64,000 nucleotides of DNA from Blastocatellia bacterium. Lineage in GTDB: Bacteria > Acidobacteriota > Blastocatellia > UBA7656. Of the stretch, positions 1 through 19,019 are shown one piece after another. A model generated the notes under the pieces. The model saw only the letters and a list, made by a program, of their open reading frames with translations. It was not told where the DNA came from and did not search any database. The translations under genes were made by a program, and so were the position numbers. Position 1 is the stretch's first letter. Every line of letters starts with the position of its first letter. The DNA is taken from contig CAVXWP010000007.1 in NCBI GenBank assembly GCA_963765495.1, positions 480,001 through 544,000 of the forward strand. The letters are read 5' to 3'.

Positions 1-408
1 GTAGGCGGTGGTCAGGCAGAGCCGGTCGCTCAGCATCGCCGAATGTATGTGCAGACAGATCGCGAGCCGGATCAAAGGATCAAGCAGGAAGGAAATCAAC
101 TCTTCCGGCGCACGCAAATCCCCAGGAGCCGAAAGGAACTCAAGAACTTCGGCAGGCAATTGGCGCTTGAGGCGCTCGACATGACAAACCCGGACCTGCG
201 ACTTTATCCCAACCCTTCGAGAGAGAATTGCGGTGCTTGCGCTTATGTCAGACCCTGTATTGCGTTGAATGAAGGCGCGAGCGCAGGCCGTTTGCTTGAA
301 GCCTACTATCGCAAGCGCGACGAAGAGAGCGAAGCAGGCCGGATCGGCGGGTCTACGTGGTCGGTTGATCGTGGAGCGATGCCTCCCGGTTGGGGAAGAA
401 AATCATAA
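1..408 (+). CDS. 3' part of a putative PD-(D/E)XK / Cas4-like nuclease-family protein (5' end outside window)
   Basis: Frame is open from base 1. C-terminal YPNPSRENCGACAYVRPC resembles the P-x(n)-CxxC-x5-C Fe-S tail of Cas4/AddB-like nucleases; catalytic motifs are not visible. Confidence 0.5.
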   Translation, partial: VGGGQAEPVAQHRRMYVQTDREPDQRIKQEGNQLFRRTQIPRSRKELKNFGRQLALEALDMTNPDLRLYPNPSRENCGACAYVRPCIALNEGASAGRLLEAYYRKRDEESEAGRIGGSTWSVDRGAMPPGWGRKS

Positions 409-560: not shown

Positions 561-1583
561 GTGGATGCAAATAATAACCTTCAGGGCAACGGCAAAGTAT
601 ATCACTCTATCAAGGAGATAGATGTGCTCTGGATCACAGCGGGACTGGGTTGCGACGGTGATACCATAGCAATGACGGCGGCCACACAGCCGAGCATCGA
701 AGATGTTGTGCTCGGGGCCATACCGGGAATTCCCAGAGTGAAGTTGCACAATCCCTTTCTCGCCTATGAAAACGGCGATGAGTTTATGGACTTTTTTTAT
801 CGCGCCGAAGCCGGTGAGATAGATCCGTTTATCCTCGTAATCGAGGGCTCTATCCCCAATGAAACGAACAAAGCGGAAGGCTACTGGGCGGGCTTTGGCA
901 CAGACAAACAGACGGGTCAGCCCATTCTGACGTGTGAATGGATAGACCGGCTGGCCCCAAAAGCCTGGGCCGTTGTGGCGGCTGGAACCTGCGCGACTTA
1001 TGGCGGCATCCATGCGATGCAGGGTAATCCTACGGGTTGTATGGGGCTTGCAGATTATCTCGGCTGGGCGTGGAAATCGAATGCAGAGATTCCCATTGTG
1101 TGTGTGCCGGGGTGCCCGGTGCTTCCCGACAATTTTATGGAGACGCTGCTTTACCTGCTCTATCAAGTGGCGGGGCTCGCGCCGATGATCCCGCTCGATG
1201 AGTCTCTCCGCCCCGTATGGCTTTTTGAACAGACGCTGCACGAAGGATGTGATCGCGGCGGTTATTACGAGCAGGCCGAATTTGCCGAAGAGTACGGCGG
1301 GCGTCAGTGTATTGTGAAACTCGGATGCTGGGGGCCTGTCGTACAATGCAACGTAGGCAAACGGAGCTGGATGGCCGGTGTCGGAGGTTGCCCGAACGTA
1401 GGCGGCATCTGCATAGGCTGCACGATGCCTGGCTTCCCCGACAAGTTCATGCCGTTTATGGATCAGCCTCCCGGATCGCTTCTGTCATCAGCCGCCGTGA
1501 TGACCTATGGCAAGGCCATTCACGCGTTGCGCAGGTTTACTCAGGCATCGCTGAACAAGGAACCGGATTGGCGGCGACGCTGA
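561..1583 (+). CDS. Group 1h [NiFe]-hydrogenase small-subunit paralog (orphan copy upstream of two-component system)
   Basis: WITAGLGCDGD, GTCATYGGI, VPGCP, HEGCDR, CIVKLGCWGP and GGCPNVGGICIGCTMPGFPD motifs; highly similar to 4847..5911; no Tat signal. Confidence 0.93.
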   Translation: MDANNNLQGNGKVYHSIKEIDVLWITAGLGCDGDTIAMTAATQPSIEDVVLGAIPGIPRVKLHNPFLAYENGDEFMDFFYRAEAGEIDPFILVIEGSIPNETNKAEGYWAGFGTDKQTGQPILTCEWIDRLAPKAWAVVAAGTCATYGGIHAMQGNPTGCMGLADYLGWAWKSNAEIPIVCVPGCPVLPDNFMETLLYLLYQVAGLAPMIPLDESLRPVWLFEQTLHEGCDRGGYYEQAEFAEEYGGRQCIVKLGCWGPVVQCNVGKRSWMAGVGGCPNVGGICIGCTMPGFPDKFMPFMDQPPGSLLSSAAVMTYGKAIHALRRFTQASLNKEPDWRRR

Positions 1584-1631
1584 TCCGACTGCTCACGAAA
1601 GCCTGTTCGACAGCCGGGTCATATCGAAGAG

Positions 1632-3569
1632 ATGATGAAGACGCAATCACAAAGTGGAGCTAACAGCGCCTATGCAGGCAATCGTAAGGGGGCGGCCTTT
1701 GAAGAGCCTCAAGCGGTGAGTCTGCCCGATGCGGAGAACATACTGAACGAGCTTGCCAGCGTCTTCTTTCCTGTTGATTCGCCGATTCAGACATCGGCAA
1801 GCGGAGCCATCGAGAAGCGGAGGCGGGCTACGATACAGGCAGCCGAACTGCCGAATGCCGTGGCTCGATATCGAACTCTCGTCGAGCAAATCCCCGCCGT
1901 TGTCTTCATGGCTTTTCTTGATAAAGGCATCGGCGAAGCCTACGTCAGCCCGCAGATCGAAGCGATGCTCGGCTTCTCTCAGGAAGAGTGGCTAAACGAC
2001 CCCGTGCGCTGGTATCGACATATCCACCCCGATGACAAAGCGCGCTGGAGCAACGAGGCGGCGCAGATGTTTTTGACCGGCGAGTCGTTGCGCTCCGTCT
2101 ACCGAGTGATCGCCCGCGACGGGCACGTCGTATGGTTTCACTGCGAAGCAAAGATGGTGAGGCGCGATGATGGCCGTCCCTGGTTTATCCACGGAGTCGG
2201 GTTTGACATTACCGAACTGAAACAGGCCGAGGCAGCGCTGAAAGAGGCGCACGACGAATTGGAAGTGCGCGTGCGGCAACGAACGGCCGAACTCGAAACC
2301 GCCAACCGCGAATTGCAAATGGAGATTGCCGAGCGCGAACGCGCCGAATCCGAGTTGCGGCAGGCGCACGATGAACTGGAAGATCACGTCCAGATGCGCA
2401 CAGCCCAGTTGGCGGAAGCGAACGAAGAGTTGCTTGTGGAAATCGGCGAGCGCCGCCGCGTCGAAGACGCCCTCCGCAAAAGCGAGGGCATGTTGCGCGG
2501 CCTCTTTGAGTATGCTCCCGATACTATGGTGCTCGTAGATAGCAGCGGGCACATTACGCGGATAAACGCGCAGGTGGAAGCTATGTTTGGGTACAGGCAG
2601 ATGGAGTTGCTCAATCAGCCGATTGAGTGCTTGTTGCCCGAACGCTTCAGGCAGGGGCATATAAAGCACCGCGCCGATTATAATATCGAGCCGCATATTC
2701 GCACCATGGGCGCAGGGCTTGAGTTATCCGGCAGGCGCAGGGACGGCAGCGAGTTTCCCGTAGAAATCATGTTGAGCCCGATAGAGACCAGAGACGGTCG
2801 TCAGGTGATAGCCGTAGTGCGCGACACCACCCGGCGCAAGCGCGCCGAAGCGGCGCAGCGCGAATATGCCGAGCGCCTGCAAATACTCTCTCGTCGCCTG
2901 ATGGAGGTTCAGGAGGTTGAACGCCGCAACATCGCGCGCGAATTGCACGACGAAATCGGGCAGGTGCTGACCGGCCTCAAACTCAGCCTTGAGATGTGTT
3001 CGCGGCTGCCGGCAGACCAGATGGGCGCGAGCCTCAATCAGGCGCAGATGCTCGTCAACGACCTGATGGCGCGGGCGCGCAAGCTATCGCTCGATTTGCG
3101 CCCGGGCATGCTCGACGATCTTGGCCTGTTGCCGACATTGCTATGGCATATCGAACACTATACGGCGCAAACCCGCGTTCAGGTGATCTTCAAGCATAGC
3201 GGCATTGAAGGGCGGAGATTTGCGCCGGAAGTCGAGACCGCGGCCTATCGCATCGCTCAGGAGGCGCTTACGAATGTCGCGCGACACGCGGGCGTAAATC
3301 AGGCCACACTGCGAGTCTGGGCATACCATCAAACGCTCAACCTGCAGATCGAAGATTATGGAAACGGCTTCAATTCCGATGCGGTTGTCGCCGCAAGCGA
3401 CACCAGCGGAGTGGCGGGAATGCGCGAACGCACCATGCTGCTCGGCGGGCAACTGACTATTGAGTCGCAACCCGGATTCGGCACCAGTCTGACTGCGGAA
3501 CTGAGAATAGACGACGAGCCTGACGCGCAGTCGGAAGCGGAGAGCTTGCCGACTGCTAAAGAGGATTAG
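1632..3569 (+). CDS. Cytosolic PAS-PAS sensor histidine kinase (HisKA_3/NarX-type)
   Basis: Two PAS/PAC domains, ERRNIARELHDEIGQ H-box, YRIAQEALTNVARHA N-box, EDYGNGF G-box; no TM segments. Confidence 0.92.
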   Translation: MMKTQSQSGANSAYAGNRKGAAFEEPQAVSLPDAENILNELASVFFPVDSPIQTSASGAIEKRRRATIQAAELPNAVARYRTLVEQIPAVVFMAFLDKGIGEAYVSPQIEAMLGFSQEEWLNDPVRWYRHIHPDDKARWSNEAAQMFLTGESLRSVYRVIARDGHVVWFHCEAKMVRRDDGRPWFIHGVGFDITELKQAEAALKEAHDELEVRVRQRTAELETANRELQMEIAERERAESELRQAHDELEDHVQMRTAQLAEANEELLVEIGERRRVEDALRKSEGMLRGLFEYAPDTMVLVDSSGHITRINAQVEAMFGYRQMELLNQPIECLLPERFRQGHIKHRADYNIEPHIRTMGAGLELSGRRRDGSEFPVEIMLSPIETRDGRQVIAVVRDTTRRKRAEAAQREYAERLQILSRRLMEVQEVERRNIARELHDEIGQVLTGLKLSLEMCSRLPADQMGASLNQAQMLVNDLMARARKLSLDLRPGMLDDLGLLPTLLWHIEHYTAQTRVQVIFKHSGIEGRRFAPEVETAAYRIAQEALTNVARHAGVNQATLRVWAYHQTLNLQIEDYGNGFNSDAVVAASDTSGVAGMRERTMLLGGQLTIESQPGFGTSLTAELRIDDEPDAQSEAESLPTAKED

Positions 3570-3572
3570 CCG

Positions 3573-4229
3573 ATGAATACGCTCACCATCGTGCTTGCCG
3601 ACGATCACAATGTCGTGCGACAGGGTCTGCGGGCATTGCTTGAGGCGGAGACGGATTTCAACGTGGTAGGCGAGGCCTGCGACGGTCTGGAAGCCCTGCA
3701 ACTGGTCGAACAATTAAGGCCGAATGTGCTGGTGCTTGATGTGATGATGCCCGGACTCAACGGCCTGGAGGTTTCTCGACAGCTTAACAAGCTCTCGCCG
3801 CAAACGCACATCGTCGTCCTGTCAATGTATTCCAACGAGGCATACGTCCTTGAGGCATTGGGCAACGGCGCATCGGCCTATGTCCTCAAGGATTCCAGTT
3901 CGGCTGATCTCGTGCATGCCGTACGCGAGGTTGCAGCGGGCCGGCGCTATCTGAGCCCGCCGCTTTCCGACCGCGCCATCGAGGCGTACCAGGAGAAGGC
4001 CAGGGCCGTCGTGCTCGACAAGTATGAAACCTTGACCACCCGCGAGCGCGAAGTGCTGCAACTGTCAGCCGAAGGGCATACCAGCACCGAGATTGCCGCG
4101 CGGCTTGGCATCAGTTCACGCACGGCCGAGACGCACCGCTCCAACCTTATGCATAAACTCGGTCTGCACACGCATGCCGACCTCATTCGGTATGCCCTGC
4201 GACGCGGCATCATCCCGATGGATAATTGA
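3573..4229 (+). CDS. NarL/LuxR-family response regulator
   Basis: LADDH and VLDVMMP receiver motifs; LTTREREVL...TAETHRSNLMHKLG HTH; starts 3 nt after kinase stop. Confidence 0.95.
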   Translation: MNTLTIVLADDHNVVRQGLRALLEAETDFNVVGEACDGLEALQLVEQLRPNVLVLDVMMPGLNGLEVSRQLNKLSPQTHIVVLSMYSNEAYVLEALGNGASAYVLKDSSSADLVHAVREVAAGRRYLSPPLSDRAIEAYQEKARAVVLDKYETLTTREREVLQLSAEGHTSTEIAARLGISSRTAETHRSNLMHKLGLHTHADLIRYALRRGIIPMDN

Positions 4230-4278
4230 ACGCCGTTCGCGCGCCTTCAGGCTCCATTTTCCCTCCAATCCTGAAAAA

Positions 4279-4345
4279 TACGTAATAGTTTCGCTCTAAT
4301 TACGTAGGTTTACGAATAGACAGTCGGATAGCAGCGCGATATGAT
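4279..4345 (+). promoter_or_regulatory. Putative response-regulator boxes plus -10 element upstream of hhySL
   Basis: TACGTA 4279-4284, TACGTA 4301-4306, TACGAA 4311-4316; TATGAT 4340-4345. Confidence 0.45.
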
Positions 4346-4380: not shown

Positions 4381-4412
4381 GCTAGAGACACTCTGGGGGG
4401 GGTGTCTCTAGC
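4381..4412 (+). terminator. Strong hairpin (terminator/attenuator or sRNA 3' end)
   Basis: 11-bp perfect stem GCTAGAGACAC/GTGTCTCTAGC; no long U-tract. Confidence 0.5.
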
Positions 4413-4846
4413 TGACTATCCGCAGCCAACGCTTATACATGCATGGATTGGGACTCATATTTGACCTTGAAATCACTCGGTGTTAAGATGGTGTCACATT
4501 GGATGGACGCATGTGGTAATGAAGCTGGTCTGATATACATGTGCTCATTCAAACAACTGGCGCGACAGGCGCTCCAATCAAAAATTCATTTACGGCATAT
4601 CACAAGAGCTTACTCCCTTCATCAGACGCTTTTTCTTATGAGCGATCATTTGCAACCTCACCGTTGCGCCGTACCAGTATTTGTTGATCATAAGGACCGG
4701 CGCGCTCGAGGCAATCGCGCTTCGAGACAAACCGGCTCACCGAGTTGCAAGAGTCATGGCTGATGCTAGCGCCCTCTTGCGAAAGCAACCGCGGGCCCAC
4801 CAACATCAACCGGCGACATCCATAATGATAGAAAGGAGGGACTACC

Positions 4847-5911
4847 GTGGCACAAGAAACGGTTCCATACGGGAGAAAAACCCAACACGCGCCCGCGGTA
4901 AAAGAAGTGCATATTGTCTGGATAACGGCAGGACTCAGTTGTGATGGTGATTCCGTGTCAATCACCGCAGCCACCCAGCCCAGCATCGAAGAAGTCGTAC
5001 TGGGAGCGATACCGGGACTGCCAAAGGTGCATCTGCACAACCCCGTACTTGCCTACGAAGTCGGCGATGATTTCATGCAGTATTGGTACAAGGCGGAGAA
5101 GGGCGAACTTGATCCTTTTGTACTGGTGGTTGAAGGCTCGATTCCAAACGAGAGGATTAAGAGCGAAGGTTACTGGGCGGCGATGGGCACAGACCCCGCG
5201 ACCGGACAGCCTATCACGACCAATGAGTGGATTGATCGCCTCGCCCCGAAAGCGCTGGCTGTGATGGGTTGCGGGACCTGCGCCACCTACGGCGGAATCC
5301 ATGCCATGGCAGGCAACCCTACAGGTGCCATGGGGCTCGCGGATTATCTGGGATGGGATTGGAAATCGAAGGCCGGGCTGCCGATCATCAATGTTCCAGG
5401 CTGTCCCGTGCAGCCGGATAATTTCATGGAGACCGTGCTCTACCTGCTCTATCAAGCGGCGGGGCTCGCGCCGATGATCCCGCTCGATGACCAGTTGCGG
5501 CCCACCTGGCTGTTCGGCAAGACGGTGCACGAAGGCTGTGACCGCGCGGGCTATTACGAGCAGGGCGATTTCGCCACCGAATATGGATCGCCGAAATGTA
5601 TAGTGAAGCTCGGATGCTGGGGGCCCGTGGTCAATTGCAACGTTCCAAAACGCGGCTGGATGGCCGGCATTGGCGGCTGCCCAAACGTAGGCGGCATATG
5701 CATAGGCTGCACGATGCCCGGCTTCCCCGACAAGTTCATGCCCTTTATGGATGAGCCGCCCGGCGGCAAGCTCTCTTCATCGGCCGTAGGTCTTTACGGC
5801 AAGGCGATTACGGCGCTGCGCAGCATCACAAACTCGACCCTGAACAAAGAACCCAAATGGCGGCACACGCGTCCCGAACTCACGACCGGTTATCGGCCAA
5901 GGTCATACTAA
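4847..5911 (+). CDS. hhyS: Group 1h [NiFe]-hydrogenase small subunit
   Basis: AGLSCDGDSV proximal-cluster motif (Asp ligand) and full Fe-S Cys set; RBS AGGAGG before GTG; directly upstream of the large subunit. Confidence 0.95.
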   Translation: MAQETVPYGRKTQHAPAVKEVHIVWITAGLSCDGDSVSITAATQPSIEEVVLGAIPGLPKVHLHNPVLAYEVGDDFMQYWYKAEKGELDPFVLVVEGSIPNERIKSEGYWAAMGTDPATGQPITTNEWIDRLAPKALAVMGCGTCATYGGIHAMAGNPTGAMGLADYLGWDWKSKAGLPIINVPGCPVQPDNFMETVLYLLYQAAGLAPMIPLDDQLRPTWLFGKTVHEGCDRAGYYEQGDFATEYGSPKCIVKLGCWGPVVNCNVPKRGWMAGIGGCPNVGGICIGCTMPGFPDKFMPFMDEPPGGKLSSSAVGLYGKAITALRSITNSTLNKEPKWRHTRPELTTGYRPRSY

Positions 5912-5928: not shown

Positions 5929-7737
5929 ATGAGTGCTTCAACGAAACCGAAATCAAAGTCTCCGACTGCGGCGCAGAACCTGGTTGAGATGAATTGGGAC
6001 CCGATCACCCGCATCGTCGGCAGCCTCGGAATCTTCACCAAGATAGACTTTGAGAACAAACAGGTCGCGGAATGCTACAGCACCAGTTCGATCTTTCGCG
6101 GCTACAGCATCTTCATGAAGGGCAAAGACCCGCGTGATGCGCACTTTATCACGAGCCGCATCTGCGGCATCTGCGGCGATAATCACGCGGTATGCGCGAC
6201 CTATGCGCAGAACATGGCCTTTGGCGTCCGCCCGCCCGCGCTCGGCGAATGGATAACAAACCTCGGCGAAGCGGCCGAGTATATGTTCGATCACAATATT
6301 TTTCAGGACAATCTGGTAGGCGTTGATTTCTGCGAGCAGATGATTAAAGAGACCAACCCGAGCGTCTGGGACAAGGCTCAGAATACCTCCGCGCCGAATG
6401 CCGACAAACACGGTTACAAGAAGATCTCCGACATCATGACGGCGCTAAACCCGTTCACGGGCGAGTTCTATCGCGAGACCCTGCAAGTGAGCCGTTACAC
6501 GCGCGAGATGTTCTGTTTGATGGAAGGCCGCCACGTTCACCCCTCGACACTCTATCCGGGCGGCGTCGGCACCGTGCCTACCGTGCAACTCTTCACCGAT
6601 TACATGGTCAGGCTGATGCGCTATGTGGAGTTCATGAAGAAAGTCGTGCCGCTGCACGATGACCTCTTCGACTTCATGTACGAGGCGCTGCCGGGTTATG
6701 AAGAGGTGGGACGGCGGCGAATACTGCTCGGCTGCTGGGGATCGTGGAATGACCCAGATATATGCGATTACACTTACAAAAACATGTCCGAGTGGGGTAA
6801 AGGCATGTTTGTCACGCCGGGCATTGTCGTAGACGGCGAGCTTGTGACCACGGACCTTGTAAAGATCAACCTCGGCATACGCATACTGCTCGGCAGTTCC
6901 TACTATGACGACTGGGAGAATTCCGAAGTCTTTGTCCGCGAAGACCCGCTCGGCAATCCCGTAGACAAGAAGCATCCGTGGAACCAGACCACCATTCCTC
7001 GACCGCAAAAGCGCGACTTCGATGACAAGTACACCTGGGTCATGTCGCCGCGCTGGCTCGACGAGCGGACGGGCGATCATCTGGCGCTCGATACGGGCGG
7101 CGGGCCGATTGCGCGGCTCTGGGCGACTGCGCTTGCCGGGATCGTGGACATCGGCTACATAAAGGCCACGGGCCACAGCGTCAAGATATACCTGCCGAAG
7201 TCTGCGACCCTGCCCGAAGTCGAGTTCGAGTGGAAGATTCCGCAATGGTCGAACGCCATCGAACGCGACCGCGCGCGGACATACTTCCAGGCTTATGCAG
7301 CGGCAGCCGCGCTTCATTTCATCGAGAAAGCGATGGCCGAACTCCACGCCGGAAGGACAAAGACGTGGTCTGATTTCAAGGTGCCGGATGAGGCGATTGG
7401 CTGCGGTTTCCACGAAGCGGTTCGCGGGGTGCTCTCGCATCACGTAGTCATCCGCGACGGCAAGATTGCCAACTATCATCCATATCCGCCTACGCCCTGG
7501 AACGCCAACCCGCGTGATATCTACGGCACGCCCGGCCCGTATGAAGACGCGGTGCAGAACACGCCGATCTTCGAAGAGAATGGGCCTGACAAATTCAAGG
7601 GCATAGACATCATGCGCGCCGTTCGCAGCTTTGATCCCTGTCTGCCCTGCGGCGTGCACATGTATCTGGGCAACGGCAAGGTGCTCGAAGAGCGTCATTC
7701 GCCGATGTTCGGCGTGGTAGGAAATGAGAAGAAATGA
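5929..7737 (+). CDS. hhyL: Group 1h [NiFe]-hydrogenase large subunit
   Basis: L1 TSRICGICGDNH and L2 SFDPCLPCGVH group-1h signatures; start moved to ATG 5929 after AAGGAG. Confidence 0.96.
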   Translation: MSASTKPKSKSPTAAQNLVEMNWDPITRIVGSLGIFTKIDFENKQVAECYSTSSIFRGYSIFMKGKDPRDAHFITSRICGICGDNHAVCATYAQNMAFGVRPPALGEWITNLGEAAEYMFDHNIFQDNLVGVDFCEQMIKETNPSVWDKAQNTSAPNADKHGYKKISDIMTALNPFTGEFYRETLQVSRYTREMFCLMEGRHVHPSTLYPGGVGTVPTVQLFTDYMVRLMRYVEFMKKVVPLHDDLFDFMYEALPGYEEVGRRRILLGCWGSWNDPDICDYTYKNMSEWGKGMFVTPGIVVDGELVTTDLVKINLGIRILLGSSYYDDWENSEVFVREDPLGNPVDKKHPWNQTTIPRPQKRDFDDKYTWVMSPRWLDERTGDHLALDTGGGPIARLWATALAGIVDIGYIKATGHSVKIYLPKSATLPEVEFEWKIPQWSNAIERDRARTYFQAYAAAAALHFIEKAMAELHAGRTKTWSDFKVPDEAIGCGFHEAVRGVLSHHVVIRDGKIANYHPYPPTPWNANPRDIYGTPGPYEDAVQNTPIFEENGPDKFKGIDIMRAVRSFDPCLPCGVHMYLGNGKVLEERHSPMFGVVGNEKK

Positions 7738-7850: not shown

Positions 7851-8393
7851 ATGGAAGAACAAGAGTTTCAACAACGTATACAAAAGATCGGGGCGCTGGT
7901 TCACAAGATAGAGAATCTTGCTGACGCGGAAGCGCGAACCAGCGCCCTGGAGCTTTTTCAACTCGTCATGGACCTTCACGGAGCCGGCGTGGAGCGCATG
8001 ATGAATCTCATCTTCGATGCCGGAGAGCCGGGCCAGAGGATCATCGACACCCTTGGGGATGACGATCTGGTTGGCAGCCTGCTCCTGTTGTATGGACTTC
8101 ACCCGCTCGATCTTGAAACGCGGGTGATGCAGGTGCTCGACAGGCTAGGCCCTGAATTGCGCTCTCACGGAGCTACGGTCGAAGTGCTCGGTTTCAATGA
8201 CGGGGTCGTGCGGTTGCGGCTTGAGCAGAGCGCGGGCGGATGCGGGTCGTCGGCGCAGAATCTGCGGGCCGGTCTCGAAGAGGCGATCTATACGGCTGCC
8301 CCCGACATAAGTGGTCTTGAAGTCGAAGGCGGAGTGGCACCGTCCTTTCCCTCCGGCCTCGTACAACTGGCCGGATTATCAAGCAAGCGATGA
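7851..8393 (+). CDS. NifU/NfuA-like Fe-S scaffold accessory protein of the hhy cluster
   Basis: LLYGLHP and LRSHGATVEV...GGCGSS NifU-C-like motif; position after hhyL. Confidence 0.8.
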   Translation: MEEQEFQQRIQKIGALVHKIENLADAEARTSALELFQLVMDLHGAGVERMMNLIFDAGEPGQRIIDTLGDDDLVGSLLLLYGLHPLDLETRVMQVLDRLGPELRSHGATVEVLGFNDGVVRLRLEQSAGGCGSSAQNLRAGLEEAIYTAAPDISGLEVEGGVAPSFPSGLVQLAGLSSKR

Positions 8394-8557
8394 TCGATTG
8401 AGTGTTTTTCTCCTCTTTGTGAGAGGGGTCGCGGCATGGGACCACAACCTGTTGTCTCGAATATAGGAGGGAAAGATTATGGCAGATCAGGATATAACAC
8501 GGGGCGCGCCGTCGCATCATCCGGGCGCTAGAAAAGGCGAAGAAATTTATGAAAAAC

Positions 8558-8635
8558 CTTTGCCCACTTTGCGGCTTTGCGCCTTTGCGACATTCTATTT
8601 CTCGCAAAGGCGCAAAGTACGCGAAGTACGCGAAG
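8558..8635. repeat. Palindrome with CTTTGCGC/GCGCAAAG 8-9-mer arms
   Basis: CTTTGCGGCTTTGCGCCTTTGCGA..TCGCAAAGGCGCAAAGTACGCGAAG; degenerate copy at about 11971-12040. Confidence 0.8.
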
Positions 8636-8727
8636 ATTTTCCTGGAAATTAAACGACGCTGGGGCAACCACAAAATATAAATTCGGGCTGCCCCTACAAC
8701 CCTACGCTATTGCAATTCGCAAAAATT

Positions 8728-9399
8728 ATGAGTTCTACACGATCATCAGGGCCAGATAGCTCGTTTGCGACGATCCGCCAGTTTGTACGGGCGCGCGCGC
8801 CGGTCGAACGGTGTGAATTATGCAGCGCGCAACTGGCCGCCGATCATCCGCACCTGATCGAGCCGACTGCCCGTAAATTGGTCTGCGCGTGTGACGCCTG
8901 CGCCATTTTATTCAGCGGGTCGGCGGAGACGAAATATAGACGCGTCCCCCGGCGGATACGCCTGCTGACCGATTTTCAATTGACCGATGCGCAGTGGGAA
9001 AGCCTGATGATACCGATCAACCTGGCGTTCTTCTTCAACAGCACGCCTGCCGGACACGTCGTCGCGCTGTATCCAAGCCCCGCCGGCCCTACGGAATCGC
9101 TGCTCGGCCTCGATGCGTGGGAAGAGATCGCGCAATCAAATCCCGTACTCAACGAAATGGAGCCGGATGTTGAAGCGTTACTGGTAAACCGCGTAGGCAG
9201 CGCGCGCGGTTACACGGGCGCTCAGTATTACATCGTCCCGGTTGATGAATGCTATAAGCTTGTGGGATTGATTCGGGCGCACTGGCGGGGGTTGTCGGGG
9301 GGCGCAAAGGTTTGGGAAGAGATCGCTGTGTTCTTTAACAGACTGAAGGAACGGTCAATCCCGGTCGGAGAGAAAACGAATGCCAGACCTGAGCTTTGA
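8728..9399 (+). CDS. Conserved hhy-associated protein (DUF5947-like)
   Basis: ERCELC..H.H..LVCACDAC, YPSPAGPTES and PVDECYKLVGLIR motifs. Confidence 0.8.
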   Translation: MSSTRSSGPDSSFATIRQFVRARAPVERCELCSAQLAADHPHLIEPTARKLVCACDACAILFSGSAETKYRRVPRRIRLLTDFQLTDAQWESLMIPINLAFFFNSTPAGHVVALYPSPAGPTESLLGLDAWEEIAQSNPVLNEMEPDVEALLVNRVGSARGYTGAQYYIVPVDECYKLVGLIRAHWRGLSGGAKVWEEIAVFFNRLKERSIPVGEKTNARPEL

Positions 9400-10057
9400 G
9401 GTGGAAACGGCCGAAGCGGTCCCCTTCGCCGTCACGCCGCTTCTGGCGTTCAAACTGCGCGTCAGCAATCGCTATCGGGATGAGCCGATTCACACGATTG
9501 CCTTGCGGTGCCAGATCATGATTGATCCGGCTCGCCGTCGCTACCAGGATGAAGATCAAGAGCGATTGCGTGATCTCTTTGGTGAATCGGAGCGGTGGGG
9601 CCAGACCCTGCGCCCGATGCTCTGGACCAATACCAGTATCATAGTTCCCTCATTCACCGGCAGTGATGTGGTTGATCTTCAGGTGCCCTGTACATTCGAT
9701 TTCAATGTCGCGGCGACGAAGTATTTTGCGGGGCTTGAAGATGGCGAGGTGCCGCTCAATCTGTTGTTCAGCGGTACTGTTTTTTATGCAAGCGGCGAGG
9801 GCCCGCTGCGGGTAGCGCAAATTCCATGGGACAAAGAGGCGCGCTACCGCCTGCCTGTGCAGGTGTGGAAGCAGATGATGGATATCTATTACCCCAACAA
9901 TGCCTGGCTCTGTTTGCGCAAAGATGTATTCGACCGGCTCTATCGCTACAAGGTGCAAAAGGGCATTCCGACATGGGAGCAAGCCCTTGAAAGCATTCTT
10001 CCTGACGAGGAGAAGCCCGGCGCTGAGAAGCCCGGCACTGAGGAGATAGTAAACTGA
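9380..10057 (+). CDS. Conserved hhy-associated protein (DUF6084-like)
   Basis: LRCQIMIDPARRRY, DLFG..RWGQTL, PCTFDFNVAATKYF and LLFSGTVFY motifs. Confidence 0.8.
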   Translation: MPDLSFEVETAEAVPFAVTPLLAFKLRVSNRYRDEPIHTIALRCQIMIDPARRRYQDEDQERLRDLFGESERWGQTLRPMLWTNTSIIVPSFTGSDVVDLQVPCTFDFNVAATKYFAGLEDGEVPLNLLFSGTVFYASGEGPLRVAQIPWDKEARYRLPVQVWKQMMDIYYPNNAWLCLRKDVFDRLYRYKVQKGIPTWEQALESILPDEEKPGAEKPGTEEIVN

Positions 10058-11121
10058 TGAACCTCAGACTGGTAGAAAGACTCGTAAACGCCGTGCTCTA
10101 CGAAGGGTACATCCTCTACCCCTATCGGCCATCGGCGGTAAAGAATCAGCGGCGCTTCAGCTTCGGCGCGGTCTGCCCGGAAAGCTATAGCCGCGCAAAT
10201 CACGGCACAGAAGCCTGTAGCATGCAGACAGAGTGTCTGGTGATTGGCGGGCCGCAAACGACGATAGATGTGCACGCGCGATGCCTGCATCTGCTGGCGC
10301 GCGAAGTGGGAGAGGTGGCACCTCCGATAGTCGAGCTAAGCGAAGGCGACGAACCGGAGTATCGCAGGGTCGAGATGCTTGAAATCGGAGACCAGATCTT
10401 TCAAACCTGGGAGGAAGCGGTCGAGCGCGATGTGAGCGTCCCGGGTCTCAGCCTGAATGATCTTGCGGGAAAGCCCCGGCGGCTTGAGTTTGCTTTTTCG
10501 CCAGCGCGCGAGGTGGAACTCTTGCGCGATTCGAGCGACAGGATAGTCGGCGTGATCGTTCGCAAGCAGGAAGCCATCGAAGGGACTCTCGAAATCGCAG
10601 CCGAGTCGATAGGCGATAACCTGTTCAAGGTCTCTGTGCGAATACTGAACCGCACGGGCTTTGACGACGCGGAATCGAAGAACCGCGATGAAGCGTTGAT
10701 GCAATCGCTTGTCTCGACACACACGATCCTCGGCGTTCACGCGGGCGAGTTTGTTTCATTGCTCGACCCGCCCCCGGCTTTGCGCGAGCAGGCGGCGGGT
10801 TGTCAAAACACAGGCACGTGGCCGGTTCTGGTCGGCGAAGAAGGGGAGCGCGATTTGATGCTTTCATCTCCGATCATTCTTTATGACTATCCGCAGATCG
10901 CGCCGGAGAGCCCCGGCGATCTCTTCGATGGAACAGAGATAGACGAGATTCTCACGCTGCGCATCATGACGCTTACGGAAGAGGAAAAGCGCGCCATGCG
11001 CGGCGTGGACGAGCGCGCCCGGCTTATATTGGAACGAACCGAATCGCTTCCAGCCGAGCAACTGATGAAGATGCACGGCGCGATGCGCAGCCTTCGCCCC
11101 ACGCAAGAGGATGAGCGATGA
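10057..11121 (+). CDS. Conserved hhy-associated hypothetical protein
   Basis: AVLYEGYILYPYR and LSSPIILYDYPQIAPESPGDLFDGTEIDEIL motifs; TGATG coupling. Confidence 0.8.
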   Translation: MNLRLVERLVNAVLYEGYILYPYRPSAVKNQRRFSFGAVCPESYSRANHGTEACSMQTECLVIGGPQTTIDVHARCLHLLAREVGEVAPPIVELSEGDEPEYRRVEMLEIGDQIFQTWEEAVERDVSVPGLSLNDLAGKPRRLEFAFSPAREVELLRDSSDRIVGVIVRKQEAIEGTLEIAAESIGDNLFKVSVRILNRTGFDDAESKNRDEALMQSLVSTHTILGVHAGEFVSLLDPPPALREQAAGCQNTGTWPVLVGEEGERDLMLSSPIILYDYPQIAPESPGDLFDGTEIDEILTLRIMTLTEEEKRAMRGVDERARLILERTESLPAEQLMKMHGAMRSLRPTQEDER

Positions 11122-11444
11122 ACGAATGGGAGTGGGAACTTCTCGAAGAGCGAACCCAGTTGGATCATGTCCATGTGCGCGGGATTGATCTCAAGCAGGG
11201 CGACCGCGTTCGGCTCTGCCCGCGAGCGGGCGGCGATATTTTGGACCTTGCGCTCGTGGGAAAGATTGCAACGATTGAATCCATCGAACAGGATTATGAA
11301 GACAAGGTCTATCTGGCAGTGATCCTGGATGACGACCCGGGTCGTGATCTGGGATTGCTCAGACAGCCGGGACATCGCTTCTTCTTTACGCCCGAAGAGG
11401 TCGAGCCGTTTTTGCCCGGCGAAGTCGAAGAGAAAAACTCATGA
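11118..11444 (+). CDS. Conserved hhy-associated small protein (SH3-like)
   Basis: GDRVRL.P...DILD.AL.GK and DDPGRDLG..HRFFF.PEEVEP motifs; ATGA coupling. Confidence 0.75.
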   Translation: MNEWEWELLEERTQLDHVHVRGIDLKQGDRVRLCPRAGGDILDLALVGKIATIESIEQDYEDKVYLAVILDDDPGRDLGLLRQPGHRFFFTPEEVEPFLPGEVEEKNS

Positions 11445-11956
11445 CACAGCCACGCATCCTCATAGCCGGTATCGGCAATATCTTTCTCGGTGATGACGGC
11501 TTCGGCTCGGAAGTGGCGCGACAGTTAGCCGGTCGCGCGCAGCCGGATGAAGTGCGCGTGGTTGACTTTGGCATACGCGGCTTCGATCTTGCCTATGCGT
11601 TGCTTGACGGGTACGAAGTGACGATCTTTATCGATGCGACGGCGCGCGGCGGAGAACCGGGCACGCTTTACACCATTGAGCCTGACCTGAGCGAACTGAC
11701 GGAGATGGGTTCGCAAGAAGCTGCGGTCGAGCCGCACGGCATGGACCCGATGAAGGTGCTTCGGATGGTCAAGGCGATGGGCGGCGAGTTCAAGCGCATC
11801 CTGCTGGTCGCCTGCGAGCCCCTGACGCTTGGCCCGGAGGAGGGGCACATGGGGCTGAGCGAGCCTGTCGAAGCCTCGGTCGGCGAAGCGGTTCGCCTGA
11901 TCGAGTCGCTCATCTCGGAGATTCTTCGGGAAAAGAGTCTGGAAGCGACGAGTTGA
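11441..11956 (+). CDS. Hydrogenase maturation protease (HupD/HybD family)
   Basis: IAGIGNIFLGDDGFG, VDFGIRG, IDA and PHGMDP motifs. Confidence 0.92.
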   Translation: MTQPRILIAGIGNIFLGDDGFGSEVARQLAGRAQPDEVRVVDFGIRGFDLAYALLDGYEVTIFIDATARGGEPGTLYTIEPDLSELTEMGSQEAAVEPHGMDPMKVLRMVKAMGGEFKRILLVACEPLTLGPEEGHMGLSEPVEASVGEAVRLIESLISEILREKSLEATS

Positions 11957-12184
11957 ATCGTTATGAAAAGCTTTGCGTACTCTGCGCCTTTTGGAGAGCC
12001 TGTTTTTCGCACTCACGCTAAGAGCCCTGAGCAGGCTAAGAAGTTGCAGGAAACTGAATGGCCCTGATTAGAGGATGGTCTTTATAAACCTTTAGCTGGT
12101 TGATCGAGTCACTCATACGATATACTGTTAAAGCATAGGTTGGATGCTGTGAGTGATTCTCGAAAGACAGGAGATTATTACAGC

Positions 12185-12325
12185 ATGTACCTTTTTCATC
12201 ACAAAAAATCGTCAAATCACATCGTCTGGAAAATAGTCGGAGGAGCGACCCTCGCAGTCCTCGCCTACGGACTGGTAACGAACCTTCCAGACATCAAGCG
12301 TTACATCGAGATTACAACTATGTAA
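12185..12325 (+). CDS. Small single-TM protein (DUF6893-like, PDxxRY tail)
   Basis: RBS AGGAGA; one hydrophobic helix then LPDIKRYIEITTM. Confidence 0.65.
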   Translation: MYLFHHKKSSNHIVWKIVGGATLAVLAYGLVTNLPDIKRYIEITTM

Positions 12326-12514
12326 TACGGGCTGATCTGTAGCGGGGTTGATCCTCCGGCGTTCGGCTCGAATGAGGAAACGAGCAAGGGTTGGGCAGAC
12401 TAACGCAGGCAACTGCTGAACGGGCGTCTTGTCTCGTCGAGGCGTCCATCACGGAAATCTTAGAAGCATCCGCGATGCGGTTGCTGATCTAATGAAAATA
12501 GGAGAATACCCAAC

Positions 12515-12709
12515 ATGGATAATATCGAGTCCTACGACGGAAAGAGCGCAATGTATTTATTCGGAGGATTGGCCCTGGTCGTTCTCGGCACTGGCCTGAT
12601 CATCTCGCATCCATCCATTCAGAAGTATATGGGGCAGATGGGTCTCACCGATATGGTGCAGGCGGCTGTTCCTGATGTCGAACGATATTTGAAGCTCAGG
12701 TCGATGTGA
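12515..12709 (+). CDS. Small single-TM protein (DUF6893-like paralog)
   Basis: RBS AGGAGA; hydrophobic helix; ends VPDVERYLKLRSM. Confidence 0.65.
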   Translation: MDNIESYDGKSAMYLFGGLALVVLGTGLIISHPSIQKYMGQMGLTDMVQAAVPDVERYLKLRSM

Positions 12710-12833
12710 TTGACGTTGACCTGAGCCGCTATGCCACTTCTTGCCGCAGCGAAAGGGCGTAACTGAGCATAAAGGCTCGCGCAGTCTACGCCCTCTGCCG
12801 GGCTGCGCTGGAAGGAATGACAGGTGAGACCGT

Positions 12834-13403
12834 ATGAGCGCTAGTGAAACCGGCGCAGTAATCTATCGTGTGGACCCCAGGCGAAGTCGTTTTATCGTTC
12901 GCACCTTCGCCACAGGCATGTTGTCGGCCTTTGGGCATAACCCTACGTTAGCCATCCGCGATTTTACGGGTGAGGTGCAGTTCTCGCCCGAGCATCCCGA
13001 AGATGCTTCATTGCGTTTGCAGATCAAAGCCGACTCGCTTGAAGTCACCGACGAAGTAAGCGACAAAGATCGCCGGGAGATCGAGCGGCAGACGCGCGAA
13101 GATGTGCTTGAAGCCGCTCGTTATCCCGAGATCGTTTTTGAGAGTACGAAGGTTTCTGCGGAAAAGGTTATGGGGAGTCAGTACCGCGCACGTATCACCG
13201 GAAAGTTGACATTGCGCGGCATCACGCGCGATTGCGTGATCGACTCGCAGGTGATCGCCGGAGAAGATACCTTGCGCGCCAACGGAGAATTTCCCCTGCG
13301 CCAGAGCGATTTCAATATCAAGCCGGTCAGCGCCGTCGGCGGTACGATCAAGCTCAAAGACGAATTGAAGTTCTCATTTGATATTGTCGCTTATCGGCAG
13401 TGA
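12834..13403 (+). CDS. YceI-family protein
   Basis: LEAARYPEIVFES, GKLTLRGITR and QSDFNIKP pattern. Confidence 0.85.
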   Translation: MSASETGAVIYRVDPRRSRFIVRTFATGMLSAFGHNPTLAIRDFTGEVQFSPEHPEDASLRLQIKADSLEVTDEVSDKDRREIERQTREDVLEAARYPEIVFESTKVSAEKVMGSQYRARITGKLTLRGITRDCVIDSQVIAGEDTLRANGEFPLRQSDFNIKPVSAVGGTIKLKDELKFSFDIVAYRQ

Positions 13404-13497
13404 TCGGTGGTCAGTGGTCAGTGATCACTGTCCGATGGCAATAATTAAAGATCAGCAATCAATAACTGACCACTGACTACAGACCACTGGCCACTGT
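13399..13497. repeat. Heptamer-armed palindrome (CAGTGGT/ACCACTG family)
   Basis: GTGGTCAGTGGTCAGTGATCA left; CTGACCACTGACTACAGACCACTGGCCACTG right. Confidence 0.8.
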
Positions 13498-13503
13498 GAA
13501 AAT

Positions 13504-13848
13504 ATGCACGAGTTATCCATTGCTCTGAGTATCGTGTCGATGGCCGAGGAAGAGGCCAGAGAGCGAGGCGTTCAGGTCAATGCTGTTCACCTCAAACTCG
13601 GAACGCTTTCAGGCGTAGTCAAGGATGCGTTGCTCTTCTCTTATGAACTGGCCTGCGAAGGGACCGCGCTTGAGGGTTCGCAGTTGCTTATAGAGGAAGT
13701 CCCGACGGTGGTCTACTGCCCGGCCTGTCAGGCAGAGCGGAGGCTTGATTCCATTCAGCGATTCTGCTGCTCGGTTTGCGACAGCCCGACGCCTGATGTC
13801 GTGCAGGGGAGGGAGCTAGAAGTGGTTGCCCTGGAGATACAACAATGA
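13504..13848 (+). CDS. hypA: Hydrogenase nickel metallochaperone HypA
   Basis: MHELSIA start; two CxxC; GREL. Confidence 0.95.
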   Translation: MHELSIALSIVSMAEEEARERGVQVNAVHLKLGTLSGVVKDALLFSYELACEGTALEGSQLLIEEVPTVVYCPACQAERRLDSIQRFCCSVCDSPTPDVVQGRELEVVALEIQQ

Positions 13849-14546
13849 GCACACCGCCGCGTCTGGTTGAAGTCAGACAAAAAGTTCTGAAGCAAAATGA
13901 TCTGCTCGCTCGCTCTCTGCGCGAGCGATTTCAGGAAGCCGGGGTTTATGTAATAAGTCTTGTATCAAGCCCCGGCTCGGGCAAGACCATGTTTCTTGAA
14001 AAGATGCTCGGTCGTCTTGGCGAACGCTATCGCGTAGCCGCGCTGGTCGGCGATCTGGCTACGGAAAATGATGCGGCGCGACTGGCGCGCAGCAAGGCTC
14101 CGGTCAGGCAAATCATCACCGGCACGGTCTGCCATCTTGAAGCCGCGATGGTCGAGCGCGCCCTGGAAGGATGGAGTCTCGAAGAGTTGGATTTACTCTT
14201 TATCGAAAACGTAGGCAATATGGTCTGCCCGTCGAGCTATGATCTGGGCGAAGATCTCCGGCTGGTTCTGATGTCGGTGACCGAAGGCGAAGACAAGCCG
14301 CTCAAGTACCCGACGATCTTCAATACGGCCGATGTCGCCGTGATTACCAAGATGGATTTAGCTCAGGCAGTCGAATTCGATTCGGTCGCTGCCAACAGCA
14401 ACATCCAACGGGTTCGGCCCGGCATGCAAATCTTTGAAGCCTCGGCAAAGACCGGCATCGGGTTTGACACGTTTCTGCAATTTATCGAGTCGCGCTTCAA
14501 GGAATCGAGCGGCGACGGTCTCGGCGAGCGAGCCGCTCATTACTAA
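13845..14546 (+). CDS. hypB: Hydrogenase nickel incorporation GTPase HypB
   Basis: SSPGSGKT, CHLEA, ENVGNMVCP and EGEDKPLKYP motifs. Confidence 0.96.
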   Translation: MSTPPRLVEVRQKVLKQNDLLARSLRERFQEAGVYVISLVSSPGSGKTMFLEKMLGRLGERYRVAALVGDLATENDAARLARSKAPVRQIITGTVCHLEAAMVERALEGWSLEELDLLFIENVGNMVCPSSYDLGEDLRLVLMSVTEGEDKPLKYPTIFNTADVAVITKMDLAQAVEFDSVAANSNIQRVRPGMQIFEASAKTGIGFDTFLQFIESRFKESSGDGLGERAAHY

Positions 14547-14563
14547 AATTCACTGTTGAAATT

Positions 14564-16861
<2,298 letters not shown>

Positions 16862-17128
16862 ATGTGTCTTGCAATACCCGGAAAGATCGTCGAGATCGTA
16901 GACGCCGAAAATGACATCGCCAAAGTCGAGGTCGGCGGCGTGCGGCGCAACATCAACATCGGCATGCTCGATAAGGATGATGCGCGCATCGGCGATTACG
17001 TGTTGATACATGTCGGCTTTGCGATGAGCAAAATTGACGAGAAAGAAGCCGTAGAAACGCTCAGGCTTCTCGAAGAACTGGGATCGTATGAAATCGAGAT
17101 AGATCAGTTCAAGAGTTCGATTCAGTAG
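16862..17128 (+). CDS. hypC: Hydrogenase chaperone HypC
   Basis: MCLAIPG start; VLIHVGFAM. Confidence 0.97.
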   Translation: MCLAIPGKIVEIVDAENDIAKVEVGGVRRNINIGMLDKDDARIGDYVLIHVGFAMSKIDEKEAVETLRLLEELGSYEIEIDQFKSSIQ

Positions 17129-17137
17129 GGTGGCGTC

Positions 17138-17827
17138 ATGGCAAAAACTATAGACGATTTCTCTCGCTCGTTTTACCCCTTCCTGCACGATGACGATAAG
17201 AAGCCGCAGGACTTGCAGGAAGAGTTGCGCTTCTCGTTGCTTGAGAAAGCCCGCGAGAGCGTCGAAGTCAAACAACGTTTCTTTCAAGAGAACGCCGATG
17301 CCATTCTCGAAGCGTCACTGGCGATGGCAAAGAGCTTTCAGCGCGGCGGCAAGCTGCTGGTTTGCGGCAACGGCGGCTCGGCCACCGACGCGCAGCACAT
17401 CGCCGTAGAGTTTATGCATCCGATCACGGTAGGCCGCAAGGCGCTGCCTGCAATATGCTTGACCAATGATATGGCGATGGTCACGGCGGTCTCAAACGAC
17501 GTAGGATTTGCCGATGTCTTCTCGCGGCAGGTCATCGCGCTCGGGCGTGAAGGCGACATCCTGCTGGGGATTTCGACCAGCGGCAATTCCGACAACCTGA
17601 TGCACGCCTTCGAGACGGCGCGAAAAATGAAGCTCGTCACCATAGGTTATGCCGGTGGCGACGGTGGCAGGATGGTCGAGCTGCACGCAGCCAGGCGGCT
17701 TGATTTCTGCCTGACGGTTCCGACATCGAGCATCCACCGGATACAGGAAAGCCACGTGACGCTTTATCATACGATGTGGGACATGGTGCACACTTATTTA
17801 GAGCATCGCTCGCTTGTCGAGGGCTGA
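17138..17827 (+). CDS. gmhA: SIS-domain phosphoheptose isomerase (GmhA-like) inside the hyp operon
   Basis: CGNGGSATDAQH, ISTSGNS and RIQESH motifs. Confidence 0.85.
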   Translation: MAKTIDDFSRSFYPFLHDDDKKPQDLQEELRFSLLEKARESVEVKQRFFQENADAILEASLAMAKSFQRGGKLLVCGNGGSATDAQHIAVEFMHPITVGRKALPAICLTNDMAMVTAVSNDVGFADVFSRQVIALGREGDILLGISTSGNSDNLMHAFETARKMKLVTIGYAGGDGGRMVELHAARRLDFCLTVPTSSIHRIQESHVTLYHTMWDMVHTYLEHRSLVEG

Positions 17828-17845
17828 GACGATGGAGGGACTCAA

Positions 17846-18973
17846 ATGAAATTTATAGACGAATACAGACAAAGCGACCTGGCTCGCCGTCTCGCCGATC
17901 AGATCGCGCAGCTGACCGACGAGCCGCTAAAGCTTATGGAAGTCTGCGGCGGCCATACGCACACGATCTTCAAGTACGGCATCGAAGACCTGCTGCCGCC
18001 CAACATCGAGATGATTCACGGGCCGGGATGCCCCGTCTGCGTCATCCCGCTTGGCCGAACCGATGACTCGATCTCGCTCGCCCTGCAACCAGACGTGATT
18101 TTTACCACCTTCGGCGATATGATGCGGGTCCCCGGCTCAAGCACTAACCTGTTTGACGCCAAGGCGGCGGGCGCTGACGTGCGCATGGTCTATTCGCCGC
18201 TCGATGCCTTGAAGATCGCAAAGAAGAATCCCGACCGTCAGGTGATCTTTCTGGCGCTCGGATTTGAGACCACCGCGCCTTCGACGGCGATGACCGTCCG
18301 GCAGGCGGCAAAAGAGCAGGTCGAAAACTTCAGCGTATTTTGCAACCACATCATGATAGTTCCGGCGTTGAAAGCTATGCTCGATTCGCCCGATCTGAAA
18401 CTGGACGGCTTTCTGGGGCCGGGCCACGTCAGCACGGTCATCGGCACGCGCTGTTACGAATTTGTCTCGACCGATTACGGCAAGCCGATAGTCGTGTCGG
18501 GCTTTGAGCCGCTCGACATTTTGCAATCGGCCTATATGATCGTAAAGCAGGTGGTCGAAGGCCGCGCCGAAGTCGAGAATCAGTATTCGCGTGTCGTTTT
18601 GCGCGATGGTAATATCAAGGCATTGGAAGTGATTTTTGATGTCTTCGAACCGCGCGATTATTTCGAATGGCGCGGCCTTGGCTCGATACCAAACAGCGGC
18701 ATGAAGTTGCAGAAGAAGTACGCCGCCTTTGACGCGGAATTGAAATTCGCGGTGCCGGGTCTGAAGATCGCCGACCCGAAAGCCTGCCAGTGCGGCGAGA
18801 TTTTGAAAGGCGTGAAGAAGCCCTGGGAGTGCAAGGTATTCGGGACCGCCTGCACGCCTGAGACGCCAATAGGTTCGTGCATGGTCTCTTCGGAAGGCGC
18901 GTGCGCGGCATATTACAACTTCGGGCGACTCTCGAAAGTCGCCGAACGTTCAGCCCTGAATGCGCGGCCCTGA
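17846..18973 (+). CDS. hypD: Hydrogenase maturation protein HypD
   Basis: MEVCGGHTH, GPGCPVC, GFETT, PGHVS and CMVSSEGAC motifs. Confidence 0.97.
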   Translation: MKFIDEYRQSDLARRLADQIAQLTDEPLKLMEVCGGHTHTIFKYGIEDLLPPNIEMIHGPGCPVCVIPLGRTDDSISLALQPDVIFTTFGDMMRVPGSSTNLFDAKAAGADVRMVYSPLDALKIAKKNPDRQVIFLALGFETTAPSTAMTVRQAAKEQVENFSVFCNHIMIVPALKAMLDSPDLKLDGFLGPGHVSTVIGTRCYEFVSTDYGKPIVVSGFEPLDILQSAYMIVKQVVEGRAEVENQYSRVVLRDGNIKALEVIFDVFEPRDYFEWRGLGSIPNSGMKLQKKYAAFDAELKFAVPGLKIADPKACQCGEILKGVKKPWECKVFGTACTPETPIGSCMVSSEGACAAYYNFGRLSKVAERSALNARP

Positions 18974-19019
18974 ACGCGCGGCCCTGAATGCGCGGCCAAA
19001 CCGTGTCGCAGGAAAAGCT

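Follow-up and report, generated by a model that had tools for sequence, protein, structure and literature searches.

Architecture of the hhyS2 locus

The stretch of DNA analyzed here, referred to as the window, comprises 64,000 nucleotides (nt) of a Blastocatellia bacterium (Acidobacteriota; contig CAVXWP010000007.1, positions 480,001 to 544,000 of the forward strand; G000:C7:480001-544000 with our genome and contig handles). The host genome of 7.3 Mb is 97.9% complete. The window contains the genes hhyS and hhyL (together hhySL) of a group 1h hydrogenase, and directly upstream a second small-subunit gene, termed hhyS2, followed by the genes of a soluble histidine kinase and of a NarL/LuxR-type response regulator. 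The products of hhyS2 and the canonical hhyS are named S2 and S1. Judged by comparison of related loci, hhyS2, kinase, and regulator are probably a switch that turns on the group 1h hydrogenase. The module is real and conserved; its function is putative.

Atmospheric H2 is removed mainly by soil bacteria with high-affinity hydrogenases. The signals and sensors controlling atmospheric H2 use are described as still to be understood, and the induction of Hhy as an open question, in a paper from 2026 (PMC13098282; this and the other papers given by PMC number are quoted from the accessible parts of their text). The question of regulation becomes directly testable through a predicted operator, a candidate docking helix, and three strains in culture for which an extra hhyS is reported. 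If HhyL is shared, the module would represent a new design for a hydrogenase sensor.

The features of the locus are as follows:

561-1583, + strand: hhyS2, encoding S2 (340 amino acids, aa), a group 1h small-subunit paralogue and the proposed sensory input
1632-3569, + strand: soluble histidine kinase (645 aa) with N-terminal helix (N-helix), PAS-A, coiled coil, PAS-B, HisKA_3 (His439), and HATPase_c
1722-1766, + strand: the N-helix of the kinase, amphipathic, AExxLxxLAxxF, a candidate docking element
1863-2231, + strand: PAS-A domain, the constant part in all S2-linked kinases
3573-4229, + strand: NarL/LuxR-type regulator of type A (218 aa) with Asp56, Lys106, and the recognition helix SRTAETHRSNLMHKL
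4274-4286, + strand: auxiliary half-site (TACGTA at 4279), 22 bp upstream of the main box
4301-4316, + strand: 7-2-7 inverted repeat TACGTAG-GT-TTACGAA, the predicted operator of the regulator
4317-4345, + strand: sigma-70-type promoter (-35 TAGACA, 17 nt, -10 TATGAT) that adjoins the operator and points toward hhySL
4847-5911, + strand: canonical hhyS (S1)
5929-7737, + strand: hhyL with intact Ni-Fe motifs, the sole group 1h large subunit found in the genome
7851-20156, + strand: accessory and maturation genes, namely NifU-like, DUF5947, DUF6084, protease, YceI, hypABFC, SIS/gmhA-like, and hypDE

The reading frames, as well as the gap of 48 nt between hhyS2 and the kinase gene, are as described in an earlier annotation made without database searches (the sequence-only reading). 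The gap between kinase and regulator measures 3 nt. A genome search finds two group 1h small subunits and one large subunit. The gene directly 3' of hhyS2 is the kinase gene and not hhyL, which departs from the gene order of a canonical hhyS. The genes at 7851-20156 are presumed to be the rest of the regulated cluster; their hyp and gmhA names are what we take them to be by sequence recognition.

S2 as a separate clade of group 1h small subunits

S2 and S1 share 73-75% identity; HofK of Cupriavidus necator is 74% identical to S2 and is also the top match of S2 in the Protein Data Bank (PDB; 5AA5 chain A, E 3e-176, next match 2e-40). In the tree, S2 is placed among HhyS sequences. By both criteria, it belongs to the group 1h small-subunit family. 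The ligands of the Fe-S clusters are intact: C31, D34, C144, and C185; H227, C230, C250, and C256; C263, C277, C284, and C287, with an allocation to the individual clusters that we assume by homology. All nine Cys common to both paralogue sets are kept, as are H227 and the proximal Asp34. A proximal Cys3-Asp site is described for the AH hydrogenase of C. necator (PMC11023054).

The two paralogue sets (125 S2 and 99 S1 sequences) are fixed differently at 14 positions. The C-terminal tail LTTGY occurs in 98 of the 99 S1 sequences compared with 2 of the 125 S2 sequences, and S2 is therefore not quite full length. Thus, the sequence-only description of a full-length HhyS-like protein with intact Fe-S ligands and without a large subunit of its own holds for the ligands and the orphan state but not for the length. 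Additional Cys at positions 125, 160, and 181 are present in 91, 86, and 92% of S2 but in 12, 38, and 0% of S1. The C-terminal helix is more conserved in S2 (0.92) than in S1 (0.79).

The small-subunit tree consists of 44 rows out of 60, with one long branch and 15 close relatives left out (16 rows), and the motif used to collect S2 was masked before tree building. Herein, 24 S2-type sequences make up one side of a branch with a support of 100/99. S2 shows a dN of 0.09-0.15 at a dS of 1.5-2.5. As judged from tree and substitution rates, S2 is an old, separate clade under purifying selection. A recent duplicate was rejected because of the distinct clade and the dS, and a pseudogene because of the low dN relative to dS. 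The exchange of the proximal Asp for Glu was considered as a hallmark of S2 and dropped: Glu occurs in 15 of 131 S2-labelled and in none of 101 S1-labelled sequences.

In the genome G017, the small-subunit gene in front of hhyL (L017:340-1389; L and G numbers are our handles for loci and genomes) resembles S2 in its N-terminal and S1 in its C-terminal half, and a stop separates the two halves. This hybrid is either a recombinant or an assembly chimera.

A kinase with a constant front end

The kinase has the domain order PAS_3-PAS-HisKA_3-HATPase_c, and its catalytic motifs are present (His439, EALTN at 544, and DxGxG at 575). Neither a Tat motif nor a membrane helix is found in the proteins of the module (maximum KD19 1.25), in agreement with the soluble PAS-PAS-HisKA_3 kinase proposed earlier. 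Close homologues carry the label Blastocatellia. The N-terminal extension, first described as about 75 aa long, is conserved only in a short helix at residues about 31-45, the remainder being not conserved. Within this N-helix, which is helical in the AlphaFold2 (AF2) model, the A/E/L/L/A/F positions are at least 90% conserved among 100 kinases, and the linker to PAS-A is variable. A looser form of the helix motif is present in 138 of 156 PAS-A kinases; the stricter form occurs in none of 98 unrelated PAS homologues (<65% identity).

In nearly all loci from Acidobacteriota, the identity of PAS-A lies at 65-89%. PAS-B is absent in three of seven close orthologues and hence dispensable. A fold search with N-helix plus PAS-A returns generic PAS domains only, with 3H9W as the best match (31% identity) and LOV, FixL, and AHR at 17-24%, so that no cofactor can be assigned to PAS-A. 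Homologues of N-helix plus PAS-A are mostly unrelated multi-PAS proteins of 37-49% identity. The output behind this front end varies: HisKA_3 cores occur with either of two NarL-type regulators, other kinases have HisKA, and others still are hybrids that contain receiver and Hpt domains (scan of 26 proteins, one of which is a wrong-strand reading frame). S2 keeps its N-helix/PAS-A partner away from hhySL and with swapped output (L258, L257, L113, and L116). Because N-helix and PAS-A stay constant with S2 while the outputs are exchanged, we infer that S2 and the kinase front end act as one unit.

The genome G175 (L088, L258/L259) contains two PAS-A kinases, the one with a HisKA core beside S2 and the HisKA_3 type beside the regulator.

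Linkage of S2 and kinase across genomes

A motif scan of GTDB matched at least 120 stretches, 80 of them with flanks. The listed matches stem from Acidobacteriota, Planctomycetota, Gemmatimonadota, Verrucomicrobiota, and one bin labelled Heliomicrobium. The gene after hhyS2 encodes the PAS-A kinase in 70 of the 80 listed loci, and in 55 of these 70, S1 follows at most 7 kb downstream. In the others, a large subunit is next (six loci), the kinase lies on the opposite strand (one), none is nearby (one), or the contig ends (two). From the side of the kinase, 563 metagenome stretches encode a relative; among the best 80 of these 563, S2 is located directly upstream in 71, and seven begin too near to the kinase to tell. 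In several relatives, the stop codon of S2 overlaps or abuts the start of the kinase. Phylogeny and synteny, which had been named as the check on a sensory module, thus come out in its favor: S2 is a distinct, kinase-linked clade and not a recent duplicate.

An even sample of 301 genomes from the phylum gives nine matches to the S1 motif and eight to the S2 motif. After follow-up of five of the discordant or split genomes and of G037, eight genomes carry both, two only S1, and one only S2. By these motifs, 11 genomes of the sample have a group 1h small subunit; with 8 of the 11 having both, the module is typical of the carriers in this phylum.

The regulator and its predicted operator

The regulator is of the REC-GerE type with Asp56, Ser84, and Lys106 present, and together with the HisKA_3 kinase forms a two-component pair of the NarL/LuxR type. 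No other site of the genome matches the 7-2-7 box at 4301-4316 (motif A) with one mismatch or none. Type A denotes regulators with an identity of 70% or more to that of the window, and type B those of the roughly 30% type; both types have different recognition helices. Downstream of the regulator, motif A is found in 13 of 18 type-A loci and in none of 95 type-B loci, 69 of which have the palindrome GGGGAWTCCCC (motif B) instead; shuffled controls give 3 and 8 of 2260. The same division applies to the hhyS promoters of 84 loci, with motif A in 11/11 type-A and 0/73 type-B loci and motif B in 67/73 type-B and 0/11 type-A loci. Among nine later loci, motif A is present in three of three of type A and motif B in two of two of type B; neither is found in two loci with an unrelated kinase-regulator pair nor in two stand-alone S2 loci. 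Where the regulator gene has moved away (L015, L016, and L088), the box remains with hhyS.

TAGAC and a -10-like hexamer are conserved in type-A loci. A regulator site adjoining the -35 element is an established geometry for activation, and the position of the box hence suggests activation. From these motif comparisons, the regulator very probably binds the predicted operator and activates hhySL. Upstream of hhyS2, no conserved motif is evident by eye, so that autoregulation through the box is not supported.

Elsewhere in the host genome, a perfect palindrome TAGGTAG-TT-CTACCTA occurs at G000:C17:9380-9395 and 14525-14540, in a stretch of which a second copy is found at a distance of about 5 kb. 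It follows shortly after the gene of a NarL-type paralogue of the regulator (42% identity to that of the window) and is probably this paralogue's own box. In three further genomes, namely G028 (L021), G088 (L261), and G103 (L262), S2 is not found and a different kinase with a NarL-type regulator (33-42%) lies directly before hhySL; these loci contain neither motif A nor motif B.

Relatives with a large subunit of their own

In six Planctomycetota loci (L045, L054, L064, L074, L101, and L047), an S2-type gene is followed by its own large subunit, which is 75-79% identical to HhyL. The PAS-A kinase follows in five of the six, and in two of them directly and with the same N-helix. The four intact large subunits examined keep both Ni-Fe motifs and differ at otherwise fixed positions such as T477, W480, P523, and Y532. 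Five of the genomes were searched: in G043 and G044, where the kinase is directly linked, a canonical S1-L pair is additionally located elsewhere, and in the other three, the S2-type pair is the only group 1h enzyme found. The Planctomycetota set is a candidate for a complete sensory hydrogenase derived from group 1h.

In the small-subunit tree, 17 S2 without a large subunit (98/91) are sister to the six with their own (83/76). One orphan planctomycete S2 falls outside both groups, and the direction of large-subunit loss is hence not settled. The large-subunit tree (24 rows) has 19 canonical sequences on one side (86/100), but its root is a long branch and its bootstrap had not converged; the four S2-linked large subunits are grouped as one side in only 12% of the bootstrap trees.

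These relatives are the main reason to think that S2 works with a large subunit. The genome G037 (99% complete) points in the same direction: S2 is its sole group 1h small subunit found, and its hhyL has no hhyS upstream. In addition, HhyL is found in four of five genomes with an unlinked S2. The earlier proposal that S2 borrows HhyL thus gains comparative support, and this from relatives that keep their own large subunit.

Another cluster is present in all three genomes searched of the family f5 (L024:8050-15698 in G040, L025:2146-9604 in G032, and L026:1884-9475 in G036). It consists of a small subunit of about 283 aa (41% to S2) with a proximal CxxC and lost distal-cluster ligands, two tandem HhyL-like genes (34-38%), and a large PAS gene with kinase-like similarity, for which no PAS-A orthologue is found. 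The large-subunit genes stop at IRSFDP/L without RxCGxC and thus have no Ni-Fe cysteines (four aligned, six motif-checked). The cluster has the appearance of a signalling-linked pseudo-hydrogenase without nickel. A second hydrogenase of G017 (L018:2413-5685) has intact Ni-Fe motifs, 42% identity to HhyL, and a long small subunit; its large subunit has an N-terminal extension of the MVFKNLPIEFD type in common with the nickel-free pair of f5.

Comparison with known systems

HydDB lists group 2b as the kinase-linked NiFe sensory group (PMC5037454), and the HoxBC-HoxJ-HoxA pathway of C. necator is described in PMC4257681. As in these systems and in HupUV-HupT-HupR, the module combines hydrogenase subunit(s) with a soluble PAS kinase and a response regulator for an uptake hydrogenase. 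However, S2 is 33% identical to HoxB compared with 74% to HofK, and has no large subunit of its own in the window genome. The kinase matches HoxJ only over PAS-B and its coil (23%), PAS-A has no similarity to the HoxJ N terminus (hhalign probability 0.4), and the core is of the HisKA_3 type. Similarity to HoxA is confined to the receiver domain. HoxA carries the annotation sigma-54-dependent; the regulator of the module is of the NarL type and goes with a sigma-70 promoter. Membership of group 2b was rejected by this direct comparison with the C. necator proteins. The module is likely a convergent analogue of group 2b and, by analogy, may work like it, built from different parts. From HofK (PDB 5AA5) and HhyS, with which it has family and ligands in common, S2 is set apart by its clade, the missing tail, the diagnostic positions, and the linkage to a kinase.

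Another regulator of the NarL type is DosR. The DosST/DosR two-component system regulates the group 1h hhy of Mycobacterium smegmatis (PMC13098282). Herein, DosR acts globally on over 50 genes and makes no use of a hydrogenase subunit, in contrast to the window box with its one genome site.

An extra hhyS about 3,600 bp upstream of hhySL is reported for Acidobacteriaceae KBS 83 and Edaphobacter aggregans, as in Pyrinomonas methylaliphatogenes (Giguere et al. 2021, PMC8027828, citing Greening et al. 2015). The accessible main text gives no function for it and contains no mention of kinase, sensor, two-component, or regulat. The distance of 3.6 kb compares with 3.6-4.9 kb in the loci described here, and this extra hhyS is almost certainly the same module, likened by position and spacing and not by sequence. 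Acidobacterial group 1h clusters without this module are described in PMC5900883. No functional description of the module was found in the literature searched, most subscription papers being outside its coverage. The sensory module of the sequence-only reading is partly supported, namely by clade, kinase linkage, and the regulator-matched palindrome on the hhySL promoter, and its being called new was an overstatement. What appears to go beyond the literature found are the operator box that tracks the regulator type and the Planctomycetota pairs.

Proposed mechanism and alternatives

In the mechanism proposed as the most likely, S2 would associate with HhyL from a small basal pool, giving a minor sensory hydrogenase whose Fe-S chain in S2 would take a redox state set by H2 oxidation against the cellular redox state. 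The kinase would read this state via its N-terminal helix and PAS-A and set the phosphorylation of the NarL-type regulator, which would bind the 7-2-7 box beside the -35 element and activate hhySL and the maturation genes. The parts of this chain differ in how well they are supported. That S2 contacts the kinase is likely; if it does, the pairing of S2 with HhyL and H2 as the input stand slightly better than even. The whole chain from S2-HhyL sensor to hhySL comes close to, but does not quite reach, an even chance. A baseline in exponential phase has been seen for hhyL, with hhyS then undetected (PMC8027828), and counts in favor of this mechanism.

Several points weigh against this chain. Residues 20-90 are less conserved in S2 (0.79) than in S1 (0.90), and the missing S1 tail weighs as well. 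The type of regulator changes only twice on the tree, and the match of operator and regulator amounts to one or two independent contrasts; an independent-pairs test gives one starred pair, too few for significance. The initial choice of the motifs was also made by eye, so that a third factor specific to a lineage is possible. The predicted promoter is about 500 nt away from hhyS, and a second promoter-like site is present at 4461-4489. L198 and L216, among the best 80 metagenome loci, contain kinase and regulator without an adjacent S2; in G018, regulator and box are kept and S2 and PAS-A kinase are not found; and in G049, a Verrucomicrobiae genome of unknown completeness with S2 and kinase, no HhyL was found. 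Finally, hhySL is induced by carbon limitation, and expression of the extra hhyS was detected only in KBS 83 and not in E. aggregans (PMC8027828).

Two alternatives describe the same circuit as the S2-HhyL sensor and differ from it only in the input. In the first, S2 without a large subunit is a kinase-bound Fe-S sensor of redox or O2 that reports starvation-linked redox or cluster damage and not H2. Carbon limitation as the inducing condition in two strains (PMC8027828) suits such a sensor, as do the genome G049 and the related genomes with a kinase-linked set whose large subunits are without any Ni-Fe cysteines. So do the features of S2 itself, namely the extra Cys125/160/181, the more variable N-terminal part, the C-terminal helix more conserved than in S1, and the occasional Glu in place of the proximal Asp. 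However, an intact large subunit has been kept in front of the same kinase in the sister group, and HhyL accompanies most unlinked S2. Small subunits are also normally unstable without a large subunit. Overall, a sensor made of S2 alone seems rather unlikely.

In the second alternative, S2 is a gauge of maturation or feedback that binds mature HhyL and in this way reports on assembly and the supply of nickel; its tuning of the kinase would not depend on H2 turnover. It shares the evidence of linkage and operator with the S2-HhyL sensor, and S2 and S1 must share the single HhyL in this genome; moreover, atmospheric H2 is nearly constant. A gauge is nevertheless improbable, considering that the full three-cluster ligand set is conserved in S2 and that the main enzyme would not be gauged by a private large subunit such as that of Planctomycetota.

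Least probable of all is that S2 is an alternative catalytic small subunit without contact to the kinase, the latter being co-transcribed and sensing an unrelated small ligand in PAS-A: three Planctomycetota genomes with the S2-type pair as the sole group 1h enzyme found and maturation genes present, the other kinase-regulator pairs before hhyS in G028, G088, and G103, and relatives of PAS-A (40-48%) in unrelated multi-PAS proteins would fit, but S2 keeps N-helix and PAS-A away from hhySL and across output swaps, and the helix motif is absent from the 98 unrelated PAS homologues.

A wider reading can tentatively be put forward, with a somewhat lower probability than the chain itself. Group 1h would have given a second, independent origin of hydrogenase-based H2 sensing, with N-helix/PAS-A being a portable adapter on several types of kinases and regulators. 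In Acidobacteriota, where the sensor is without a large-subunit gene, one HhyL would serve a respiratory as well as a signalling small subunit. As part of it, the complete sensory pair would survive in Planctomycetota, and H2 would possibly be read near atmospheric levels.

Neighboring features

A reading frame of 395 aa (window 1-408; G000:C7:479221-480408), whose product has a cluster of Cys at its C terminus, ends 150 nt upstream of hhyS2. Its part within the window has no Pfam match, and it is also present upstream of S2 in G006 (68%). Perfect short inverted repeats with arms of 10 and 11 bp are located at 457-489, before hhyS2, and at 4381-4412, in the hhyS leader. Farther downstream, on the - strand of the window at 45230-48975, three genes resemble the FAD, molybdopterin, and 2Fe-2S subunits of an oxidoreductase, presumably of the xanthine-dehydrogenase family.

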